Made by a program: the position numbers and the translations under genes. From the NCBI GenBank assembly GCA_903909555.1, contig CAIVWG010000006.1, forward strand, positions 1 to 56,073: a DNA stretch of 56,073 nt, in the 5' to 3' direction. Every line of letters starts with the position of its first letter. Position 1 is the first letter of the stretch. Source of the DNA: an uncultured bacterium. Lineage in GTDB: Bacteria; Actinomycetota; Actinomycetes; S36-B12. Shown here in pieces: positions 42,714-56,073 of this stretch. The notes beneath the pieces were generated by a model. The model was not told where the DNA came from and did no database searches. It saw only the letters and a list, made by a program, of their open reading frames with translations.

Positions 42714-45596
<2,883 letters not shown>

Positions 45597-45650: not shown

Positions 45651-45870
45651 CCCCTCTGGTCCCGCGGTTCACCGCGACCTGAGAGCTTCACCGCCGGGCC
45701 GTGCCGGTTGCGCACGGACCCGCGGCTTTCACCTTCGGTGGAGCAGCCGCCACGGCGACATGCTCTCTCTCCAGAGTTGCCTACCCGCGCGGTTCGGGTG
45801 CCTGAGAGTTTCCGGGGAGGTTGCTCCTTCGGCGCCGGCCCGGTGGCTCCGGGTCCAGCTCTCCCGCGCG
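45651..45870 (-). promoter_or_regulatory. Tandem glycine riboswitch (two aptamers) in the gcvP leader
   Basis: On the minus strand, aptamer 1 is GGGAGAGC...GCGCCGAAGGAGCAACC...CTCTCAGGC. Aptamer 2 is CTCTGGAGAGAG...CCACCGAAGGTGAAAGC...CTCTCAGGT. A GC hairpin and a GGAGG SD follow, before ATG 45596. Confidence 0.88.
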
Positions 45871-45906
45871 GGGTCGATCAGCGAGGACAGCGTATCCCGG
45901 AATGGG

Positions 45907-48328: not shown

Positions 48329-48706
48329 TCACTCCCCGCCGGTGAGTTCGCGGTAGGCGGCCGCGTCCATGAGTCCGTCGCGCGGACCCGTGACCGCCAC
48401 CTCGACGAGCCATCCGCCACCGTACGGATCGGAGTTGATCGTCTCGGGGGCCTGACCGAGGACCTCGTTGACCGCGGTGACCTGACCGCTCACCGGTGCG
48501 TAGATCTCGCTCACGCTCTTCGTGGACTCGACCTCGCCGCACGGCTCGTGCGCCACGATGGCATCCCCCACCTTGGGGAGGCTGACGTACACGATGTCTC
48601 CCAGTGCATCCTGGGCGTAGTCGGTAATCCCGAACGTCACCGCATCCCCACCGGCATCACGGACCCACTCGTGGTCCTTCGTGTAGCTGAGCTCGTCGGG
48701 GATCAC
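48329..48706 (-). CDS. gcvH: Glycine cleavage system H protein
   Basis: It has the lipoyl-lysine motif EVESTKSVSE. The GTG at 48706 has a GGAGG SD. The ORF track starts upstream at 48784. Confidence 0.9.
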   Translation of the reverse strand: MIPDELSYTKDHEWVRDAGGDAVTFGITDYAQDALGDIVYVSLPKVGDAIVAHEPCGEVESTKSVSEIYAPVSGQVTAVNEVLGQAPETINSDPYGGGWLVEVAVTGPRDGLMDAAAYRELTGGE

Positions 48707-48780
48707 GTCGCCTCCTCGCGCGGATGGTTGTGGTTCTACCACCGCGAACCTATCCGTGAGGGCCTGCACAGGCAAGGAGA

Positions 48781-51276
48781 TCACTCAGGCACGTCGCCGC
48801 GCCTGGCGGCAGGGGGCCCGGCGGCGGCCCGGATGACGTCGGACCACGTGTCGAGGATGGCGCGGGCCCGGCCCTCCTCGTCGGCCTCGACCCAGAGGCG
48901 GATCCGGGCCTCGCGGGCATCGGGAACCACCAGGCACCAGGCACCGTCGGCCTCGACGATCCGCAGGCCCTCCGTGGCGTCCTGATCGAGACCGGTGGCG
49001 CGGTGCTGGATCGCGGCCATGACCGGCGCCTTGCTGGTCCAGGGGGTCGCCACGGCTGCGCTGAGCATGACCGATCGGGGAATGCGCGCATCGATGGCGC
49101 TGAGCGTGAGCCGGGTGCGGGCGACGAGTCCCACGAGGGCCAGCGTCGTGGCGACGGCATCGGGGTAGGGGCCCGTGCCGCTGATGGCGAAGCCCCCGCG
49201 CCCGTCCGCGGCCAGGATGGCGCCGTCGTCGGGAACGTAGGTGCCGTCCGAGTGCACGCGCCGAACGCCCACGCCATGGAAGTGGGCGACCGACTCCGCC
49301 ACCCGGCTCGCCTGCATGGGGAGGGTCACGTGACCCGAGGAGGATTCCGCCGCGACAAGGTCCATCACCACGAGGAGAGCCCTCTCGTCCGAGAGCACCT
49401 GACCCTTCTCGTCCACGAGGGTGAGCCGTTCGCCGTGCTCGTCGATGCGGACGCCGAGGTCGGCCCCGTGGACCAGCACGCGACCGGCAAGCTCGCCGAG
49501 GGGATCCTCCTGACCGCGACCCTCGCTGGCGCGCAGGCCCAGGGAGACCAGGTCGACCCCGGTCCGCTGGAGAACCTCGGCGATGACGCGTCCCGCTGCT
49601 CCCCCGCCGGAGTCCACGACCACCGTGAGCGTCCCGGGGCCCACGCCGTCCAGGCGAGTCGACTGCACGAGGTGCTCGGCGTACTCCTCGAGCACGCCCG
49701 GGGGCGTCGCGAGCGTGCCGATGAGGCCGGGAACCTGGCGTCGGTAGTCCCGTCGGTCGTGGATCCGCTCCAGGTGCCGAGCCTGTTGCTCGGAGATGTC
49801 GTGTCCCCGGGAGTCGGCCATGAGGAGATCGAGACGTTCGTGGGCGGATCCGCGGACGCGGGCAAGGAGCCCGGCGTCGGCGTGGACGCGGGTGTCGTGC
49901 CGCCAGGTGGGCGTCGGCACGGCCCCGAGGACGCGCACGGCCGTCCCCGACGCCGACACCGCGCCGGCCATGACTGCCGCGTAGGCGCGCCCGGCCGTCG
50001 AGTCGTCATGTCCCACGCTCACGACGGCGTCCTCGGGCAGGCTGCTCACCAGCGCGAGGGCCATGCGAACGACGACCTCGGGCGACAGGTCCACCCCGAT
50101 CGTTCCCGAGGCGCCCCCGCGGGCCAGCAGGCGACGCCGCCCGCGGGTGTCCCAGGCGATGGTGCCCTCGACGATGCTGCCCGACTCGAGCGTCTTGCCG
50201 GGGTAGACGAGCGTTCCGGCGCGCACCTCGACCTCTTGCTCGAGGGTGCTGTCGTCAGACACCACCGCGCCCTCGTCGACCCTGCTGAGCGCCCCCACCT
50301 GGCAGCCTCGGCCGACCACGCAGCCCCGCAGGAGGGCTCCCGAGCCGAGGTAGACGTTGTCGTGGATGACGACCCGGTCGAGATCGGCGGACGCGCGGAC
50401 GATGCACCCCGAGCCGACGACGGAGTGGGCTCCCAGCCGTGCGCCACCCTCGACGGTCGTGCGCGACCCGATGTAGGCGGGACCCTCGATCTCCACGGTG
50501 GCGGCCAGCGAAACTCCCTCGCCGATCCACACGCCGGGGCGCACCTCGTGCCCGGGGATGTCCAGCCGCACGCGACGCTCGAGGGCGTCCACCTGGACCC
50601 GCCGGTAGGCGGGCAGGTCGCCGACGTCCTCCCAGTAGCCATCCGAGACGCGCGCGCACACGGTGGCACCGCGGGCGAGGAGACGCGGGATCACATCGGT
50701 GGACCAGTCCCATTCGCGGTCGGAGGGCATGTCCCGCAGGACGCGCGGGGACACGACGTAGATCCCGGTGCTCACGGTGTCGCCGAAGACCGTGCCCCAG
50801 CCGGGCTTCTCGTGGAATCGGGTCACCCGGCCGTCGCCATCGGTCTCGACGAGCCCGAACTCGCGGGGATCGGCTCTTCTCACCGTGCAGAGGGTGAGGT
50901 CAGCCTGCCGGTCGTGGTGGAACGCCCGCAGTTCCGACAGGTCGAGGTCGGTGACGGCATCGCCCGACACGACGAGGAAGTCGTCCTCCCACTCCCCCGC
51001 CGCCAGGCGGACGCCGCCGGCCGTGCCGAGGGGGCGATGCTCCGTGGCGTAGGCCAGGTCGACGCCGAACTCGGACCCGTCGCCGAAGTAGCGTCGAAGC
51101 GCGGTGGACAGATGCTGGACGGTGAGCACGATCTCGTCGACGCCGTGATGCTGAAGCAGGCGCATCGTGTGCTCGACCATGGGCCGTCCCACGACGGGGA
51201 GGAGCGGCTTGGGCACAGCCGTCGTCAGGGGGCGCAGGCGGCTGCCGAGGCCGCCGGCCATGACCACCGCTCTCAC
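48781..51276 (-). CDS. Fusion protein: sugar-1-phosphate nucleotidyltransferase + left-handed beta-helix + phosphohexomutase (ManC/ManB-like)
   Basis: It has GGLGSRLRPLT and an EKP motif, hexapeptide repeats, and a C-terminal PGM/PMM-like half. The GTG at 51276 has a GGGGAGG SD. The upstream part of the 1096-aa ORF was rejected. Confidence 0.8.
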   Translation of the reverse strand: MRAVVMAGGLGSRLRPLTTAVPKPLLPVVGRPMVEHTMRLLQHHGVDEIVLTVQHLSTALRRYFGDGSEFGVDLAYATEHRPLGTAGGVRLAAGEWEDDFLVVSGDAVTDLDLSELRAFHHDRQADLTLCTVRRADPREFGLVETDGDGRVTRFHEKPGWGTVFGDTVSTGIYVVSPRVLRDMPSDREWDWSTDVIPRLLARGATVCARVSDGYWEDVGDLPAYRRVQVDALERRVRLDIPGHEVRPGVWIGEGVSLAATVEIEGPAYIGSRTTVEGGARLGAHSVVGSGCIVRASADLDRVVIHDNVYLGSGALLRGCVVGRGCQVGALSRVDEGAVVSDDSTLEQEVEVRAGTLVYPGKTLESGSIVEGTIAWDTRGRRRLLARGGASGTIGVDLSPEVVVRMALALVSSLPEDAVVSVGHDDSTAGRAYAAVMAGAVSASGTAVRVLGAVPTPTWRHDTRVHADAGLLARVRGSAHERLDLLMADSRGHDISEQQARHLERIHDRRDYRRQVPGLIGTLATPPGVLEEYAEHLVQSTRLDGVGPGTLTVVVDSGGGAAGRVIAEVLQRTGVDLVSLGLRASEGRGQEDPLGELAGRVLVHGADLGVRIDEHGERLTLVDEKGQVLSDERALLVVMDLVAAESSSGHVTLPMQASRVAESVAHFHGVGVRRVHSDGTYVPDDGAILAADGRGGFAISGTGPYPDAVATTLALVGLVARTRLTLSAIDARIPRSVMLSAAVATPWTSKAPVMAAIQHRATGLDQDATEGLRIVEADGAWCLVVPDAREARIRLWVEADEEGRARAILDTWSDVIRAAAGPPAARRGDVPE

Positions 51277-51872
51277 GGCGAGGGCCTCCCCACCATGGTC
51301 CCGGAGGCCACGATGCGGCGAGTCTGGTCGAGGTAGAGGACGGCGGCGTACCAGTAGAGGCCGAGGCCCCAGAACGCGAACGCCCAGCCGATCGCGGAGA
51401 GAGCGTGCTGGAGCGCACTCGTCCCGGAGCCGGCCAGGATCAGCGGGAAGGCCCAGAAGAGCGCGAAGGTGCCGGCCTTGCCGAGGTAGTGCACGGGAAG
51501 CGCCGTGAGCCCGTGCCTCCTCAGCACGGGGACCAGGCCGAGGAGGACGAGCTCCCGCAAGACGAGCAGCCCGACGAACCACCAGGGCACGAGGTCTCGC
51601 AGCGCCAGGCCCAGGAGCGTGGCCACGATGGTGAGCCGGTCCACGAGGGGGTCGAGCACCTGCCCGAGCCGCGAGACCTGGCCGGTGCGCCGGGCGATCA
51701 CCCCGTCGGCCCAGTCGCTGACCCCGGACACCGTGAGGACGACGGCGGCGGCGAAGTCGGCCTGGCGGACCAGGACGAGCCACAGGAAGAGCGGGATCAG
51801 GAGGAGCCGGAAGAGGCTCAGGGCATTGGGGACCGTGAGGATCCGGTCCGTGTGGACGGTCTCCTCGCTCAC
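51273..51872 (-). CDS. CDP-alcohol phosphatidyltransferase family protein (PgsA2/cardiolipin-synthase-like)
   Basis: It has the signature DWADGVIARRTGQVSRLGQVLDPLVD (D-x2-DG-x2-AR...G-x3-D-x3-D) and is polytopic. It has 4-nt overlaps at both ends. Confidence 0.82.
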   Translation of the reverse strand: MSEETVHTDRILTVPNALSLFRLLLIPLFLWLVLVRQADFAAAVVLTVSGVSDWADGVIARRTGQVSRLGQVLDPLVDRLTIVATLLGLALRDLVPWWFVGLLVLRELVLLGLVPVLRRHGLTALPVHYLGKAGTFALFWAFPLILAGSGTSALQHALSAIGWAFAFWGLGLYWYAAVLYLDQTRRIVASGTMVGRPSP

Positions 51873-52630
51873 GAGTGGCGGCCGGCGGCCCGGCGGCCGC
51901 GCTCCTTCTGTCCGCGGCCCACGATGAGGGCTGCCCCGCCCAGGATGAGCAGCAGTCCGCCCAGGGACCCGGCGACGGCGCTGACCGTCGCCCCCTGGAC
52001 CAGCGGGCGCGCCCCGGGAGACCGGTACTCCAGGCGCAGCGAGGCGGAGACGCCCGGTGAGCCATCGGCATTCATGAGGACGAGGGTGCCCCCACCGAGG
52101 TCGGCGCCGCTCAGCTCCGTGGGGCTGCCGGTGGCGGATGCCCGCCACAGGGACTGCGCCTCGGGAGGGGGAGGCACGCCGCTCCCCGGCACCGAGACGC
52201 CGGTCCATCCGCCACGGTCGCGTTCGGCCACGGTGTAGGGGAAGCCGAAGAGGTACTCGTCCACCTGGGCCGTCTCACCGGTGCCCACGAAGATCGCGGC
52301 GTCGCTCTCGGGGACGACGACGAGGACGAAATCGCCGACGACATCGAGCAGTTCGGTGGGCGAGAGACCCCCCTGGGCCAGCCCATCCGACACGGACGGG
52401 GGGAGGTCTCCGGCCTCCAGGCGGGCGCTCACGCCGTCGATCACGACCGCGGTGTCGGAGTCCGCGGACACCACGTCGCCGAGGGGCTGGTCGACGACGC
52501 CGGAACGGCCCACCACCTCGACGACGCCGAAGGCGGCCACGGCGGCCGGTACCGCCAGCGCCATGGCGAGGCAGCCCAGGCAGGCCAGGATGACCCCGAG
52601 CGAGATGCGGATCACCCGCCACGCCCTCAT
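51869..52630 (-). CDS. Membrane protein of unknown function (TM helices at both termini)
   Basis: 253 aa, with an N-terminal TM (ISLGVILACLGCLAMALAVPAAVAAF) and a C-terminal TM followed by a basic tail. I recognised no family. Confidence 0.55.
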   Translation of the reverse strand: MRAWRVIRISLGVILACLGCLAMALAVPAAVAAFGVVEVVGRSGVVDQPLGDVVSADSDTAVVIDGVSARLEAGDLPPSVSDGLAQGGLSPTELLDVVGDFVLVVVPESDAAIFVGTGETAQVDEYLFGFPYTVAERDRGGWTGVSVPGSGVPPPPEAQSLWRASATGSPTELSGADLGGGTLVLMNADGSPGVSASLRLEYRSPGARPLVQGATVSAVAGSLGGLLLILGGAALIVGRGQKERGRRAAGRHS

Positions 52631-52657
52631 CGCGCCCCCACGTCGCCTCGCATGCGG

Positions 52658-53884
52658 CTAGTCCCGGGCCACGGTGAGAATGCCCAGGCACATCTCGTCG
52701 GTAGTCCCCTCTCCCCAGGTGATGTAGCGCGGCTCGGTCTCCGACAGCGCGGGCAGCTTCGAGCGCAGGCCGGCGTCATGCGTGCACGTCACCTCGAGGG
52801 TGTCGCCAGCCGACAGGGCGAGCGGCTCCTCCAGCGGCACGGCTCCCTGTCGGTCGAAGTCCCAGTTCTTCACGTCGAGCAGGGTGACCTCATCATCGGT
52901 ACCGGGGTTGGCGACGATGCGGATCGTCCGACCGAGCAGGTGCATGTGCCCGGCTGCGGCGTACACCGTGATGTCCTGGTCGACGTCGTGACGGCAGGAC
53001 TGCGTCGGGCCTGACTTCGGCTCGACGAGATCACCGCCGCACAGGAACTGCAGGCCCCAGATGGTGCGCAGCGACTCTCCCCCGAATCGCTCGATGGTGT
53101 TCTCCACCGCGGCTTCGCGGTCGCACAGCGCACCCGACTCGTCCTCGGTGCACGGAAGCTCCACGGGGGCCGGGAGGAGCAGGGTCTCGAGGGCCTTCAG
53201 GTCGCGGGTCCCCGGGACGGTGCGTAGGTCCACCGACGTCACGTCGCCCCCGTCGCCGGCAAGGAGGTTGTAGTGCACCTGAAGGATGACGCTGCTCCCC
53301 GCCGGCAGGAACACGCCCGTGCCCTCCGGGTAGCGCGACTCGCGGCCGCCGGGAGCCCACGCGGCCAGCCAGGGCGCGGAATCGAGCGAGCTGACGCCGC
53401 CGTCGGATCCCGCCGGCGGAGGAAGGTCGGGCCCACCGAAGCACGTCCAGCCCTGGCCGTCCTCCTCGGCATCGCGCTGCTGCGCCGCCTCAACCTGACT
53501 GGGGTCGACCCGGTAGAGGATCGCGTGGTGCACGATCTCGGGATTGCCCGGCGCGAAGCGCACGCCGGTGATGAAGCGGTCGTCCGGGGTCCCCGTCTCG
53601 AGCAGGAAGCAGCGGTAGTCATCGGTCGACGTGCCCTGCGCGCGAGGCGCGTAGGGCTCCCCGAGCGCGACCGTGACGAAGGGCGTGTCGGCCCCTCCCG
53701 CCGGCGCCTCGGCGTCGGGCATGGCGGAGGGAGCGTCGCCCTCCGGCGTGGCCGAGGGCACCGACGAGGGGCTCGAGGAATCGGCCGGGGAGCCCGAGGG
53801 AGCCCCCGCAGCGCATGCGGCGAGGAGCACGGCGCTCACGAGGGCGGGCGCCCAAGCCCAGGTCCGGGCGGAGGAGGGATTCAC
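52658..53884 (-). CDS. Lipoprotein with a PHM/DBH-like copper type II monooxygenase ligand pattern
   Basis: It has a lipobox (VLLAAC). The ligand pattern is HH (119-120), H204 (LQVHYN), HxH (313/315, GHMHLLG) and M398 (TDEMC). Conserved Cys pairs are also present. Confidence 0.65.
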   Translation of the reverse strand: MNPSSARTWAWAPALVSAVLLAACAAGAPSGSPADSSSPSSVPSATPEGDAPSAMPDAEAPAGGADTPFVTVALGEPYAPRAQGTSTDDYRCFLLETGTPDDRFITGVRFAPGNPEIVHHAILYRVDPSQVEAAQQRDAEEDGQGWTCFGGPDLPPPAGSDGGVSSLDSAPWLAAWAPGGRESRYPEGTGVFLPAGSSVILQVHYNLLAGDGGDVTSVDLRTVPGTRDLKALETLLLPAPVELPCTEDESGALCDREAAVENTIERFGGESLRTIWGLQFLCGGDLVEPKSGPTQSCRHDVDQDITVYAAAGHMHLLGRTIRIVANPGTDDEVTLLDVKNWDFDRQGAVPLEEPLALSAGDTLEVTCTHDAGLRSKLPALSETEPRYITWGEGTTDEMCLGILTVARD

Positions 53885-53944
53885 CCCCTCATGCTACGGG
53901 GCAATCCCGCCCAGGGCGCTGCAGGAGCGACAGCGCCGCACGCG

Positions 53945-54547
53945 CTAGGCCCCCGGGAGGTTCCACGCCGAGATGACGTGCTGATCCCGCTCGAACCCCA
54001 GGATGGACACCGCGCCGGCATCGAGGGCCCAGAGCCGTCCATCGCCCGCGGGCAGCCCCAGCCACGTCGCGGTGAGGATTCGCAGCAGGTGCCCGTGCGC
54101 GACCAGGATGCAGTCGCGTCCCGCAGCGATGTCGGGCTCGCACCGCGCGATCACGCGAGCCGCGCGTACGGCGACGTCGTCCGGAGTCTCTCCGGGCGAG
54201 TGCTCTCCGGGGATGATGGGACCCTTCCAGATCGTCCACTCGGGGTCGCCGAGCTCATCGCGGATGTCGGCGGTCGTCTTGCCCTCCCATCCGCCGTAGT
54301 CCCATTCGAGCAGGTCGTCGTCGATCGCGGTGGGTGTCAGGCCTGCCCGCGCGGCGGTGGTCCTCGCGCGAGACAGGGGCGAGCACCGGACCTGCGCGGG
54401 GTGCAGCGTCGCCATCATCGGGGCCAGCGCGCGCGCCCGTGCCTCCCCGTCGGCTGTCAGCGGGATGTCCGTCCGGCCCGTGTGCTGCCCGCTCAGGCTC
54501 CAGGCGGTCTCGCCATGGCGCAGCAGGATCAGTCGGCCGTGCGCCAT
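53945..54547 (-). CDS. Histidine phosphatase family protein (phosphoglycerate-mutase-like)
   Basis: It has the RHG motif (LILLRHGETAWS) and VAHGHLLR. Confidence 0.82.
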   Translation of the reverse strand: MAHGRLILLRHGETAWSLSGQHTGRTDIPLTADGEARARALAPMMATLHPAQVRCSPLSRARTTAARAGLTPTAIDDDLLEWDYGGWEGKTTADIRDELGDPEWTIWKGPIIPGEHSPGETPDDVAVRAARVIARCEPDIAAGRDCILVAHGHLLRILTATWLGLPAGDGRLWALDAGAVSILGFERDQHVISAWNLPGA

Positions 54548-54617
54548 GGTGACCTCCGCATCCGTGTCAGGGCCGGGACGCTACCGCACTCCCCCGGAAC
54601 CTGACCCGCTCCCGATG

Positions 54618-55472
54618 TCAGCGACGCGGCGCCTGGGAGAGCGCGTAGCACGCCACGGCGACCGCGGCGGCGACGTTCAAGGAGTCGATCCCGCCGGACA
54701 TCGGGATCCGCGCCCGGCGCTCGCTCAGGCGGAGGACCTCCGCGGACAGCCCCTCCCCCTCTGTCCCGACGGCGAGGGCCACGCGGGCGCTGCGTCGTGC
54801 CGCCAGCGCCGCGTCGAGCGTCTCGGCCTCCGGATCCGGGGTCAGCGCGAGAAGCGAGATGCCCTGCTGAGCCATGCGGGACAGGTCGGCGTCCCAGTCG
54901 TCGCTGCGCGCCCACGGGAGGTCGAGCACGGCGCCCATCGACGTCTTGACCGCGCGGCGATACAGCGGGTCCGCGCACCTCGGCGACAGCAGGATCCCAC
55001 CGATGCCGAGCGCAGCCGCAGAGCGGAAGGCGAGGCCGACATTCGTGGCATCCACGAGATCCTCGAGCACCAGCAGGTGCGCCGCCGAATCGATGATGCC
55101 GGCCACCGGGCGGGCTGGCGGCCGGCGGACGACAGCGAGTGCCCCCCGGTGGACCCGGAAGCCGGCGATGGCGTCGATCACGTCGCGCGACGCCACGAGC
55201 ACGGGACCGGCGTAGTCAGCCAGGGACAGGGCGAGCGACGGCAGCCACTTGGGCGCCGTGAGCACCGAGGCGACGTCGAGGCGGGCGCGGGCGGTGCGCT
55301 CGATGACGAGGCGGCCCTCGGCGATGAAGTAGCCGCCCTCGGGCTCGACCCGGCGGCGAAGGTCGGTGTCGGTGAGGCCTCGGTAGGGCTGCAGGCGCGG
55401 GTCCTCGGGGTCGAGGACGTCGACGAGCTGCCATCGAGGAGGGAGGGCCTCGGGGACATCAGGGTGGCGCAT
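54618..55472 (-). CDS. TrmH/SpoU family RNA 2'-O-methyltransferase
   Basis: It has SPOUT motifs: LEDLVDATNVGLAFRSAAALG, LAVGTEGEGLS and IPMSGGIDSLNVAAAVAVACY. Confidence 0.85.
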   Translation of the reverse strand: MRHPDVPEALPPRWQLVDVLDPEDPRLQPYRGLTDTDLRRRVEPEGGYFIAEGRLVIERTARARLDVASVLTAPKWLPSLALSLADYAGPVLVASRDVIDAIAGFRVHRGALAVVRRPPARPVAGIIDSAAHLLVLEDLVDATNVGLAFRSAAALGIGGILLSPRCADPLYRRAVKTSMGAVLDLPWARSDDWDADLSRMAQQGISLLALTPDPEAETLDAALAARRSARVALAVGTEGEGLSAEVLRLSERRARIPMSGGIDSLNVAAAVAVACYALSQAPRR

Positions 55473-56073
55473 CGCCCCGGGCGTCCTCCTGCTCGAGCAC
55501 CTCGGCGAGGTCGGACAGTCGATCGAGTCCGCGCAGCGGCTGCGCCATGCGGTGGTTGCCGGCCAGGGCCTCCCTGTTGCGCGCGAGGAACGACCAGTAG
55601 CCGGCCGTCACGGGGCAGCCGCGCGGGCCGACGCGCTGCGTCGGCGCGTAGGCGCAGCCGCGGCACAGGTCGGTCATCCGGTGGATGTACGACCCTCCTC
55701 CGGCGTATGGCTTGGTCGCCATCCGCCCTCCGTCCGCGTACAGCGCCATGCCGACCACGTTCGCGGCCATCACCCAGGGATAGGCGTCGACGTACGACGC
55801 CGTGAACCACTCCGTCGTCTCCCGGGGGTCGTAGCCGTGCTGGAGGGCCCAGTTGCCCAGGACCATGAGCCGCAGTATGTGGTGGTTCCAGCCCCGCTCG
55901 TCGACCTCGCCCAACGCCGTCGCCAGGCAGCGCGCGGTGAGTGCCGATGCGTCCAGGTCCCGCCACCACGCCGGGAGAGGCTCGTGCGCGGACAGGGCAT
56001 TCGAGGACGACACGTAGTCCTCGCCGAAGAACCAGTACAGGTGCCACACGTAGTCGCGCCAGCCCATCACCTG
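55459..56073 (-). CDS. Cryptochrome/photolyase family protein, FeS-BCP ((6-4) photolyase-like), C-terminal part only
   Basis: The frame is open to the right window edge. Four Cys have the spacing C-x87-C-x2-C-x12-C. W-rich motifs are present (WWRDL, WNHHILRLMVLGNW). Confidence 0.75.
   Translation of the reverse strand, partial: QVMGWRDYVWHLYWFFGEDYVSSSNALSAHEPLPAWWRDLDASALTARCLATALGEVDERGWNHHILRLMVLGNWALQHGYDPRETTEWFTASYVDAYPWVMAANVVGMALYADGGRMATKPYAGGGSYIHRMTDLCRGCAYAPTQRVGPRGCPVTAGYWSFLARNREALAGNHRMAQPLRGLDRLSDLAEVLEQEDARGDAPP

Follow-up and report, generated by a model that had tools for sequence, protein, structure and literature searches.

A predicted lipoprotein of freshwater Actinomycetota built on the two-copper core of PHM and DBH

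Peptidylglycine alpha-hydroxylating monooxygenase (PHM) and dopamine beta-hydroxylase (DBH) are the copper enzymes with which animals make amidated peptides and noradrenaline, and their class is treated in the literature that we searched as a small, ascorbate-dependent eukaryotic family. What, then, does a gene with the same order of copper ligands encode in a freshwater actinobacterium? Using a contig of 56,073 nucleotides (CAIVWG010000006.1 of assembly GCA_903909555.1; the whole of this stretch is the window below), we analyzed the gene at 52658..53884 on the minus strand, which starts with GTG, ends with the stop codon 52658-52660 and encodes a product of 408 amino acids (aa). The original prediction, made from the sequence of the window, had described this product as a lipoprotein carrying the complete PHM/DBH two-copper ligand set, and our analysis confirmed the presence of such a gene by its open reading frame (ORF), both Pfam domains of the class, its homologues and its predicted fold. 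We consider it fairly likely that the product is a PHM/DBH-type two-copper monooxygenase that is anchored by a lipid, faces outward and is competent for catalysis; it would act on a substrate that is not glycine-terminated and would be supplied with electrons by something other than ascorbate.

Copper ligands, family membership and predicted fold

Copper type II, ascorbate-dependent monooxygenases are represented in Pfam by two domains, and the 408-aa product matches both at or above their gathering scores. Cu2_monoox_C (PF03712) matches residues 300-400 with 30.6 bits where 23 are required (E 2.7e-7), and Cu2_monooxygen (PF01082) matches residues 88-206 with 30.0 bits where the cut-off is 30 (E 6.6e-7), a borderline score; a precomputed PF01082 hit is present in 119 of the 120 closest homologues, and no NCBIfam family matched the protein. 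Searched as a single sequence against the PDB, the protein gave barely any signal (DBH, E 0.11), while a profile built from 22 family members matched DBH as its best PDB sequence at E 5.3e-7 and a dozen PHM sequences at E 1e-5, with nothing else significant. An hhalign comparison of the family profile with the rat PHM core, using a reference sequence that is 100 % identical to residues 25-312 of PDB 4e4z_A, gave a probability of 96.8 % and an E value of 2.4e-10 over 231 columns, covering residues 84-400 of the product.

In this alignment the six proposed ligands fall column for column on those of PHM: H119, H120 and H204 on H107, H108 and H172 of the CuH site, and H313, H315 and M398 on H242, H244 and M314 of the CuM site. 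The motifs that carry them are EIVHHAILY (residues 116-124), VILQVHYN (199-206), GHMHLLG (312-318) and GTTDEMCLG (393-401), and all of the motif strings that were originally quoted, like the lipoprotein signal and the Pro/Ser/Ala linker, are present in the translation. The Y-x-C and W-x-C features that had been pointed out as shared with the animal enzymes are found as Y90-R-C92 and W146-T-C148, whose cysteines C92 and C148 align with C81 and C126 of PHM; C367 and C399 align with C293 and C315, Y90 with Y79 and Q202 with Q170. The pairs C81-C126 and C293-C315 are disulfides in PHM, and the four corresponding cysteines are invariant in the bacterial family and stand in the same alignment columns, their pairing here being a prediction. 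Two other placements of the C-terminal motif were set aside. A phmmer search of the PDB with the last 49 residues, intended for placing M398, returned chance matches to the phage lambda head-decoration protein (E ~0.01) and was discarded, and a HMMER alignment to DBH, in which the DEMC motif was shifted by about 10 residues, gave way to the hhalign placement.

The predicted fold agrees with the sequence comparison. The AlphaFold2 model has a mean predicted local distance difference test (pLDDT) score of 73 and a predicted template modelling score (pTM) of 0.70, with residues 1-66 disordered. In a Foldseek search of the PDB with this model the 31 best matches were all PHM or DBH (E 9e-14 to 2e-11, probability 1.00), with PHM chains at ranks 1-24 and DBH matched at E 2e-12; template modelling scores (TM-scores, target-normalized) to these structures reached 0.65, and what followed were unrelated jelly-rolls with scores below 0.2. 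PHM and DBH are therefore the only matches to the overall fold. The highest TM-scores belonged to chains A and C of 6ALA, the H108A variant of PHM with citrate (0.65), which may be a closed-conformer crystal form; wild-type open PHM scored about 0.55. Taken together, the Pfam, hhalign (E 2.4e-10) and Foldseek (E 9e-14) scores show that the match of the quoted motifs is not a chance resemblance, and with both domains, the CuH site, the CuM site and the two-domain fold all found, the protein is a member of the copper type II, ascorbate-dependent monooxygenases, as had been proposed.

Conservation of the ligands was followed from close to distant relatives. A word-indexed search returned more than 5,778 homologues. 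The best 120 of them have lengths of about 400 aa and identities of 55-99 % to the product, and are named in their sources, where a name is given, "monooxygenase" or "hypothetical"; the six ligands and eight cysteines are present in all 120. When the profile was searched exhaustively against 1.84 billion representatives at 50 % identity, 6,964 clusters matched at E <= 1e-3, of which 873 reached E <= 1e-30. Among the 150 nearest of these representatives, counting for each site the sequences that cover it, H119 and H120 are each kept in 133 of 135, H204 in 141 of 142, H313 in 130 of 134, H315 in 131 of 134 and M398 in 122 of 124, i.e., the ligands are conserved at 97-99 % across this distance.

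The architecture of the product is that of a predicted lipoprotein with a two-domain core. The Sec-type signal peptide (residues 1-24; 53813..53884, minus strand) has R7 in its n-region, an uncharged h-region and the string AVLLAAC/AAG, in which the L-A-A-C lipobox ends at Cys24 (53813-53815); the sequence ...VLLAAC24 with R7 satisfies the PROSITE-type lipobox rule ([LVI][ASTVI][GAS]C), and Cys24 is kept in at least 90 % of aligned homologues. It is followed by a low-complexity Pro/Ser/Ala tether (residues 25-66; 53687..53812, minus strand), which differs in length and sequence between homologues; pLDDT is below 50 for residues 1-66. The N-terminal beta-sandwich domain (residues 67-240; 53165..53686, minus strand) coincides with the PF01082 match and holds the three CuH ligands together with Y90, C92, C148 and Q202, and the C-terminal beta-sandwich domain (residues 298-408; 52661..52993, minus strand) coincides with the PF03712 match and holds the three CuM ligands together with C367 and C399. 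Between the two lies an insert at residues 241-297 (52994..53164, minus strand). We therefore predict a lipid-anchored, extracytoplasmic and outward-facing protein, and the eight invariant cysteines of the family would fit such an oxidizing location.

Departures from the animal enzymes and the supply of electrons

Comparison with rat PHM (PDB 1PHM, 1OPM, 4E4Z and 6ALA) brings out both a shared core and a different periphery. The two-domain beta-sandwich, the His-His...His of CuH and the His-x-His...Met of CuM are in register, and the equivalents of C81/C126, C293/C315, Y79, Q170 and the D-E-M-C motif are all present in the bacterial protein. In contrast, identity in structural alignments is only 15-18 %, the C-terminal piece with C334 of PHM is missing, and a bacterial lipoprotein that lacks the lyase domain (PAL), of which the Pfam scan of the product found none, and gives no sign of ascorbate use stands against a secretory-granule protein. 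DBH, tyramine beta-monooxygenase and MOXD1-2 (PDB 4ZEL) have the same catalytic core and ligand set, but unlike them the 408-aa protein has neither a DOMON domain (no Pfam hit at E <= 1; residues 25-66 are disordered linker) nor a dimerization domain, and the extra modules found in its relatives are cytochrome c and YceI, so that the domain arrangement is not that of DBH or MOXD proper.

The residues that hold the substrate in PHM are also changed. R240, N316 and Y318 of PHM anchor the glycine carboxylate and peptide backbone, as established by structural work, and in the hhalign alignment these columns are A311, L400 and I402 in the window protein, while the bacterial family as a whole has A, G, L or F in the first, L, F, I or Y in the second and variable residues in the third. 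The residues that bind peptidylglycine in PHM proper (EC 1.14.17.3) are thus not found, and since they are replaced, the protein belongs to the superfamily but is not a peptidylglycine hydroxylase; judged by these columns it is not a PHM orthologue, and its substrate would be something other than a C-terminal glycine.

A second departure is the insert of about 57 residues at 241-297, which has no PHM counterpart in the hhalign alignment. In the AlphaFold2 model it forms helices at residues 256-267 and 269-281, and it carries four further invariant cysteines (C245, C254, C282 and C297) and the near-invariant E242 and R256. The insert is kept in relatives that are only 31-45 % identical, fused relatives included, and on the sequences compared here this cysteine-rich helical segment is a signature of the bacterial clade. 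Lying at the domain junction with E242 and R256, it could shape the substrate site.

Relatives of the window protein also point to how such a core may be supplied with electrons. Exactly one CxxCH motif stands upstream of the core in 78 of the 150 nearest representatives: 76 of the 84 with a length of at least 430 aa have it, as do 2 of the 36 in the 330-429 aa range, and none of the 120 close homologues does. About half of the nearest non-actinobacterial relatives have a mono-haem cytochrome c domain, some with YceI in addition, fused upstream of the same core, and a conserved module, C-x-x-C-H ... M-P-P-W, immediately precedes it in the alignment. Pfam module calls made on ten long relatives identified Cytochrome_CBB3 in P0176, P0217 and P0228 and an N-terminal YceI in P0206, P0211, P0217 and P0228, with the Cu2 domains C-terminal to the extra modules in each fused example. 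The fused relatives P0176, P0206, P0211, P0217 and P0228 are represented by loci L081-L084, and a further relative, P0188, has an additional His-rich C-terminal extension (HDHAHGDHAMADHSMDHHHD). No recurrent partner gene was found in the gene context of three of the cytochrome c/YceI-fused or extended relatives.

A precedent for this pairing of modules comes from bacterial lytic polysaccharide monooxygenases (LPMOs). Polyisoprenoids and ubiquinone-8 are reported ligands of YceI-like domains, and the cytochrome domain of Cbp2D, a protein that combines YceI with a c-type cytochrome, reduces bacterial LPMOs in vitro (PMC8981238); Cbp2D/CjX183 and the LPMOs thus offer a case in which a YceI/c-type cytochrome protein feeds an extracellular copper monooxygenase (PMC8981238). 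The AA10 LPMOs with donors of the Cbp2D/Cbp2E type (YceI-like X158 plus c-type cytochrome X183) resemble the present system in being extracytoplasmic bacterial copper monooxygenases, and the same two module types are those fused to the PHM-like core in relatives. They differ in that an LPMO holds a single histidine-brace copper in an unrelated fold and in that the PHM-like relatives carry the modules in cis, on the same chain as a two-copper core. By the "Rosetta-stone" logic of the fusions, the core would carry out redox chemistry with electrons drawn from a haem protein or the quinol pool and not from ascorbate, and by this analogy the reductant of the bacterial PHM-like core is probably a protein or the quinol pool. 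Since the window protein itself has neither the cytochrome c nor the YceI module, its electron donor would have to be a separate component.

Weighing the readings of the protein

Judged by its residues and model, the 408-aa protein is probably active as a two-copper monooxygenase. By likeness to PHM, CuH (H119, H120 and H204) would take up two single electrons, delivered through a separate component from a protein donor or the quinol pool, a substrate would be held in the cleft between the domains, and CuM (H313, H315 and M398) would bind O2 and hydroxylate a C-H bond of that substrate. Several points weigh against this. Copper binding and turnover are predictions from sequence and an overall fold match, the PF01082 score lies exactly at its cut-off, and the AlphaFold2 model is of moderate quality, with pLDDT of 62-83 in the insert. 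Neither the surroundings of the gene in the window nor those in 80 related loci, which come from Actinomycetota metagenome-assembled genomes labelled Nanopelagicales and others and from Nocardioides species, showed a conserved operon partner, copper chaperone or redox protein, and for the lipoprotein subfamily gene context therefore points to neither a substrate nor a donor. An RNA contig that crosses the start codon, described below, also counts against part of the picture.

The same silence of the gene context, together with the extracytoplasmic lipoprotein location, would suit a non-catalytic copper-binding lipoprotein with a role in the buffering, storage or delivery of extracytoplasmic copper, in which the PHM scaffold survives purely as a metal-binding fold. 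We regard this as improbable, because both chemically distinct sites are fully conserved along with the equivalents of Q170 and Y79, because the frequent fusion to cytochrome c implies redox turnover, and because the annotated part of the window holds no cop, cso or sco genes. A more basic doubt, that the gene comes from eukaryotic contamination or is a spurious ORF, draws on the many long spurious ORFs that high-GC DNA yields, several of which overlap this locus on the other strand as the usual artefacts of such DNA. The window has a guanine-plus-cytosine (GC) content of 71 %, and in this setting the codon-position values of the 408-aa ORF (0.89 at third and 0.55 at second positions) are typical of coding sequence and identify a real gene; synteny of the gene is conserved in about 30 actinobacterial genomes, the protein has thousands of homologues, 88-94 % of sampled words of the region are present in many freshwater metagenomes, and RNA contigs map onto the gene. 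With these results an artefact is effectively refuted, and we give it next to no chance.

What the enzyme would act on divides the remaining readings. In the fold search the first 24 places all go to PHM chains, and the profile aligns with PHM over residues 84-400, as would be expected if the protein were a genuine peptidylglycine alpha-hydroxylating enzyme of bacteria and amidated secreted peptides, yet the exchange of R240, N316 and Y318 for A311, L400 and I402, in columns that are likewise changed or variable across the family, and the lack of an adjacent lyase (PAL) partner or precursor-peptide gene make amidation very improbable. A narrower form of the preferred monooxygenase reading takes the substrate to be a lipid or isoprenoid of the outer leaflet (quinone, polyprenol or phospholipid) and not a soluble amine or peptide. 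The predicted lipid anchor would tether the protein to the membrane, relatives fuse the core to YceI with its reported polyisoprenoid and ubiquinone-8 ligands (PMC8981238), and all 28 close-clade loci with enough sequence have a CDP-alcohol phosphatidyltransferase gene no more than about 1 kb downstream in the same orientation. On the other hand, YceI may hold an electron carrier rather than a substrate, and the adjacency disappears below 57 % identity (0 of 48 loci) and sits in a housekeeping block (NTP-transferase/phosphomannomutase (PMM) fusion, gcvH, MerR and gcvP), so that it may be inherited synteny; we hold the membrane-lipid substrate to be an unlikely candidate.

Part of what is described here was already on record, as databases recognize both domains and NCBI labels some homologues "monooxygenase". 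New are the same catalytic core with a predicted lipid anchor, a predicted disulfide-rich clade insert, a changed substrate pocket and, in relatives, a different electron delivery. No characterized bacterial member of the PHM/DBH class was found in open-access PMC and bioRxiv full text, which is not proof of absence. In place of "hypothetical protein / monooxygenase", the annotation of the gene can now read "lipoprotein, PHM/DBH-like two-copper monooxygenase". A wider proposal, which we put forward tentatively and with more doubt than the monooxygenase assignment itself, is that the window protein is the minimal lipid-anchored form of a very large bacterial PHM-type clade, wired to respiration or the quinol pool through cytochrome c and YceI and acting on a new class of substrate, possibly a membrane lipid, an isoprenoid or a dissolved organic compound. 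At that scale, a clade of thousands of clusters with both copper sites intact, a different pocket and often a built-in haem donor could open new reaction space in extracytoplasmic copper hydroxylation and offer tractable systems for the long-debated questions of inter-copper electron transfer and O2 activation. The bacterial clade may be the prokaryotic stock of the animal neuropeptide and catecholamine enzymes, and it would inform their origin. If true, the reaction could matter ecologically, given that the freshwater Actinomycetota in which the gene is conserved and transcribed are widespread.

Promoter, expression and neighbouring genes

The proposal that the gene has a leaderless promoter of its own gained strong comparative support. 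As originally described, the -10-like hexamer TAGCAT (53891..53896, minus strand) stands exactly 6 nucleotides (nt) before the GTG start codon (53882-53884). In all 20 orthologous loci examined, a TANNNT hexamer precedes the start codon by 6-7 nt, while the remaining intergenic DNA has diverged; the prevailing form is CGTAGCAT-N6-ATG, with the variants TACGAT, TAGCCT, TACCCT, TACATT, TAACAT and TAGAAT. The chance of TANNNT at a fixed position is about 0.3 % in DNA with ~15 % A and 15 % T, and its presence at this site in every locus is therefore a strong footprint, with a spacing that matches the geometry of actinobacterial leaderless promoters. An E. coli sigma-70 and terminator scan of 51700-54700 found nothing, and the E. 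coli model is uninformative for an actinobacterium of 71 % GC.

Expression was followed in environmental data. The region is nearly intact in many metagenomes from lakes, ponds, rivers and groundwater, and in seven metatranscriptome runs there are contigs that map to the gene (52675-52825, 52790-53046, 52860-53036, 53304-53514, 53681-53860, 53714-53866 and 53762-54025). Two of them end 18-24 nt inside the gene, and apart from fragments of 18-35 nt in chimeric contigs, only the upstream part of 53762-54025 covers a neighbouring gene. This last contig (X30, riverine, 3 mismatches) crosses the start codon into the histidine phosphatase gene, which means that transcription is not exclusively leaderless, unless the contig derives from DNA. 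On the conserved hexamer, transcription probably starts at the GTG and yields a leaderless mRNA, and read-through from the upstream gene is possible.

The neighbours of the gene provide a housekeeping context. All genes from 55472 to 42714 are on the minus strand, in the order SpoU-type methyltransferase, histidine phosphatase, monooxygenase, a 253-aa membrane protein and CDP-alcohol phosphatidyltransferase, continuing with the NTP-transferase/hexapeptide/phosphomannomutase fusion, gcvH (48329-48784), MerR, a bifunctional nuclease, a second MerR and gcvP (42714-45596). Across the 80 related loci, the order from SpoU through the monooxygenase to the phosphatidyltransferase is confined to the close clade (at least 56 % identity), in which an ABC-ATPase/DPRP/SpoU block is conserved upstream of the monooxygenase. 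Nocardioides loci have PhoH-YbeY-CorC downstream and a GerM-like lipoprotein upstream, and no recurrent partner of the monooxygenase was found in loci of this type.

The 253-aa protein (51869..52630, minus strand) had been taken as a hint of an extracytoplasmic oxidative function. It is indeed bitopic and lies 27 bp downstream of the monooxygenase, but it is restricted to one lineage, has no redox or metal motifs and adds little to the functional argument. Its structure model has an N-terminal transmembrane helix, a beta-sandwich and a C-terminal transmembrane helix. The gene is missing from the close-clade loci L022, L025, L027, L029 and L031 and from every more distant locus, and no non-homologous bitopic gene was found in its place downstream of the monooxygenase in the distant loci. 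As an electron donor or copper partner it was rejected, since no Pfam or NCBIfam family matches it, only 37 homologues are detectable, these have no conserved His or Cys, and the model has no PDB fold match at E <1e-3. Its stop codon overlaps the GTG start of the phosphatidyltransferase gene as GTGA (51869-51872, minus strand), with the same overlap in the related locus L001; this overlap suggests translational coupling of the two and that the 253-aa protein may belong with the phosphatidyltransferase and not with the monooxygenase.

Further features of the window were recorded alongside these genes. The fusion downstream of the phosphatidyltransferase gene is a protein of 839 aa (48781-51300, minus strand) with NTP_transferase, a hexapeptide-repeat region and phosphoglucomutase/phosphomannomutase domains I-II, and the ORF of 1096 aa listed for it is spuriously extended at the N-terminus, into the phosphatidyltransferase gene. 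Directly upstream of gcvP, at 45780-45876 on the minus strand, there is a glycine riboswitch aptamer (Rfam RF00504, 55.5 bits). At the other end of the block, a partial gene (55459-56070, minus strand) runs off the end of the window, and its orthologue in L001 (2936-4459) matches PF04244, deoxyribodipyrimidine photolyase-related protein. The sole tRNA in the window is tRNA-Leu(GAG), at 2120-2204 on the minus strand.

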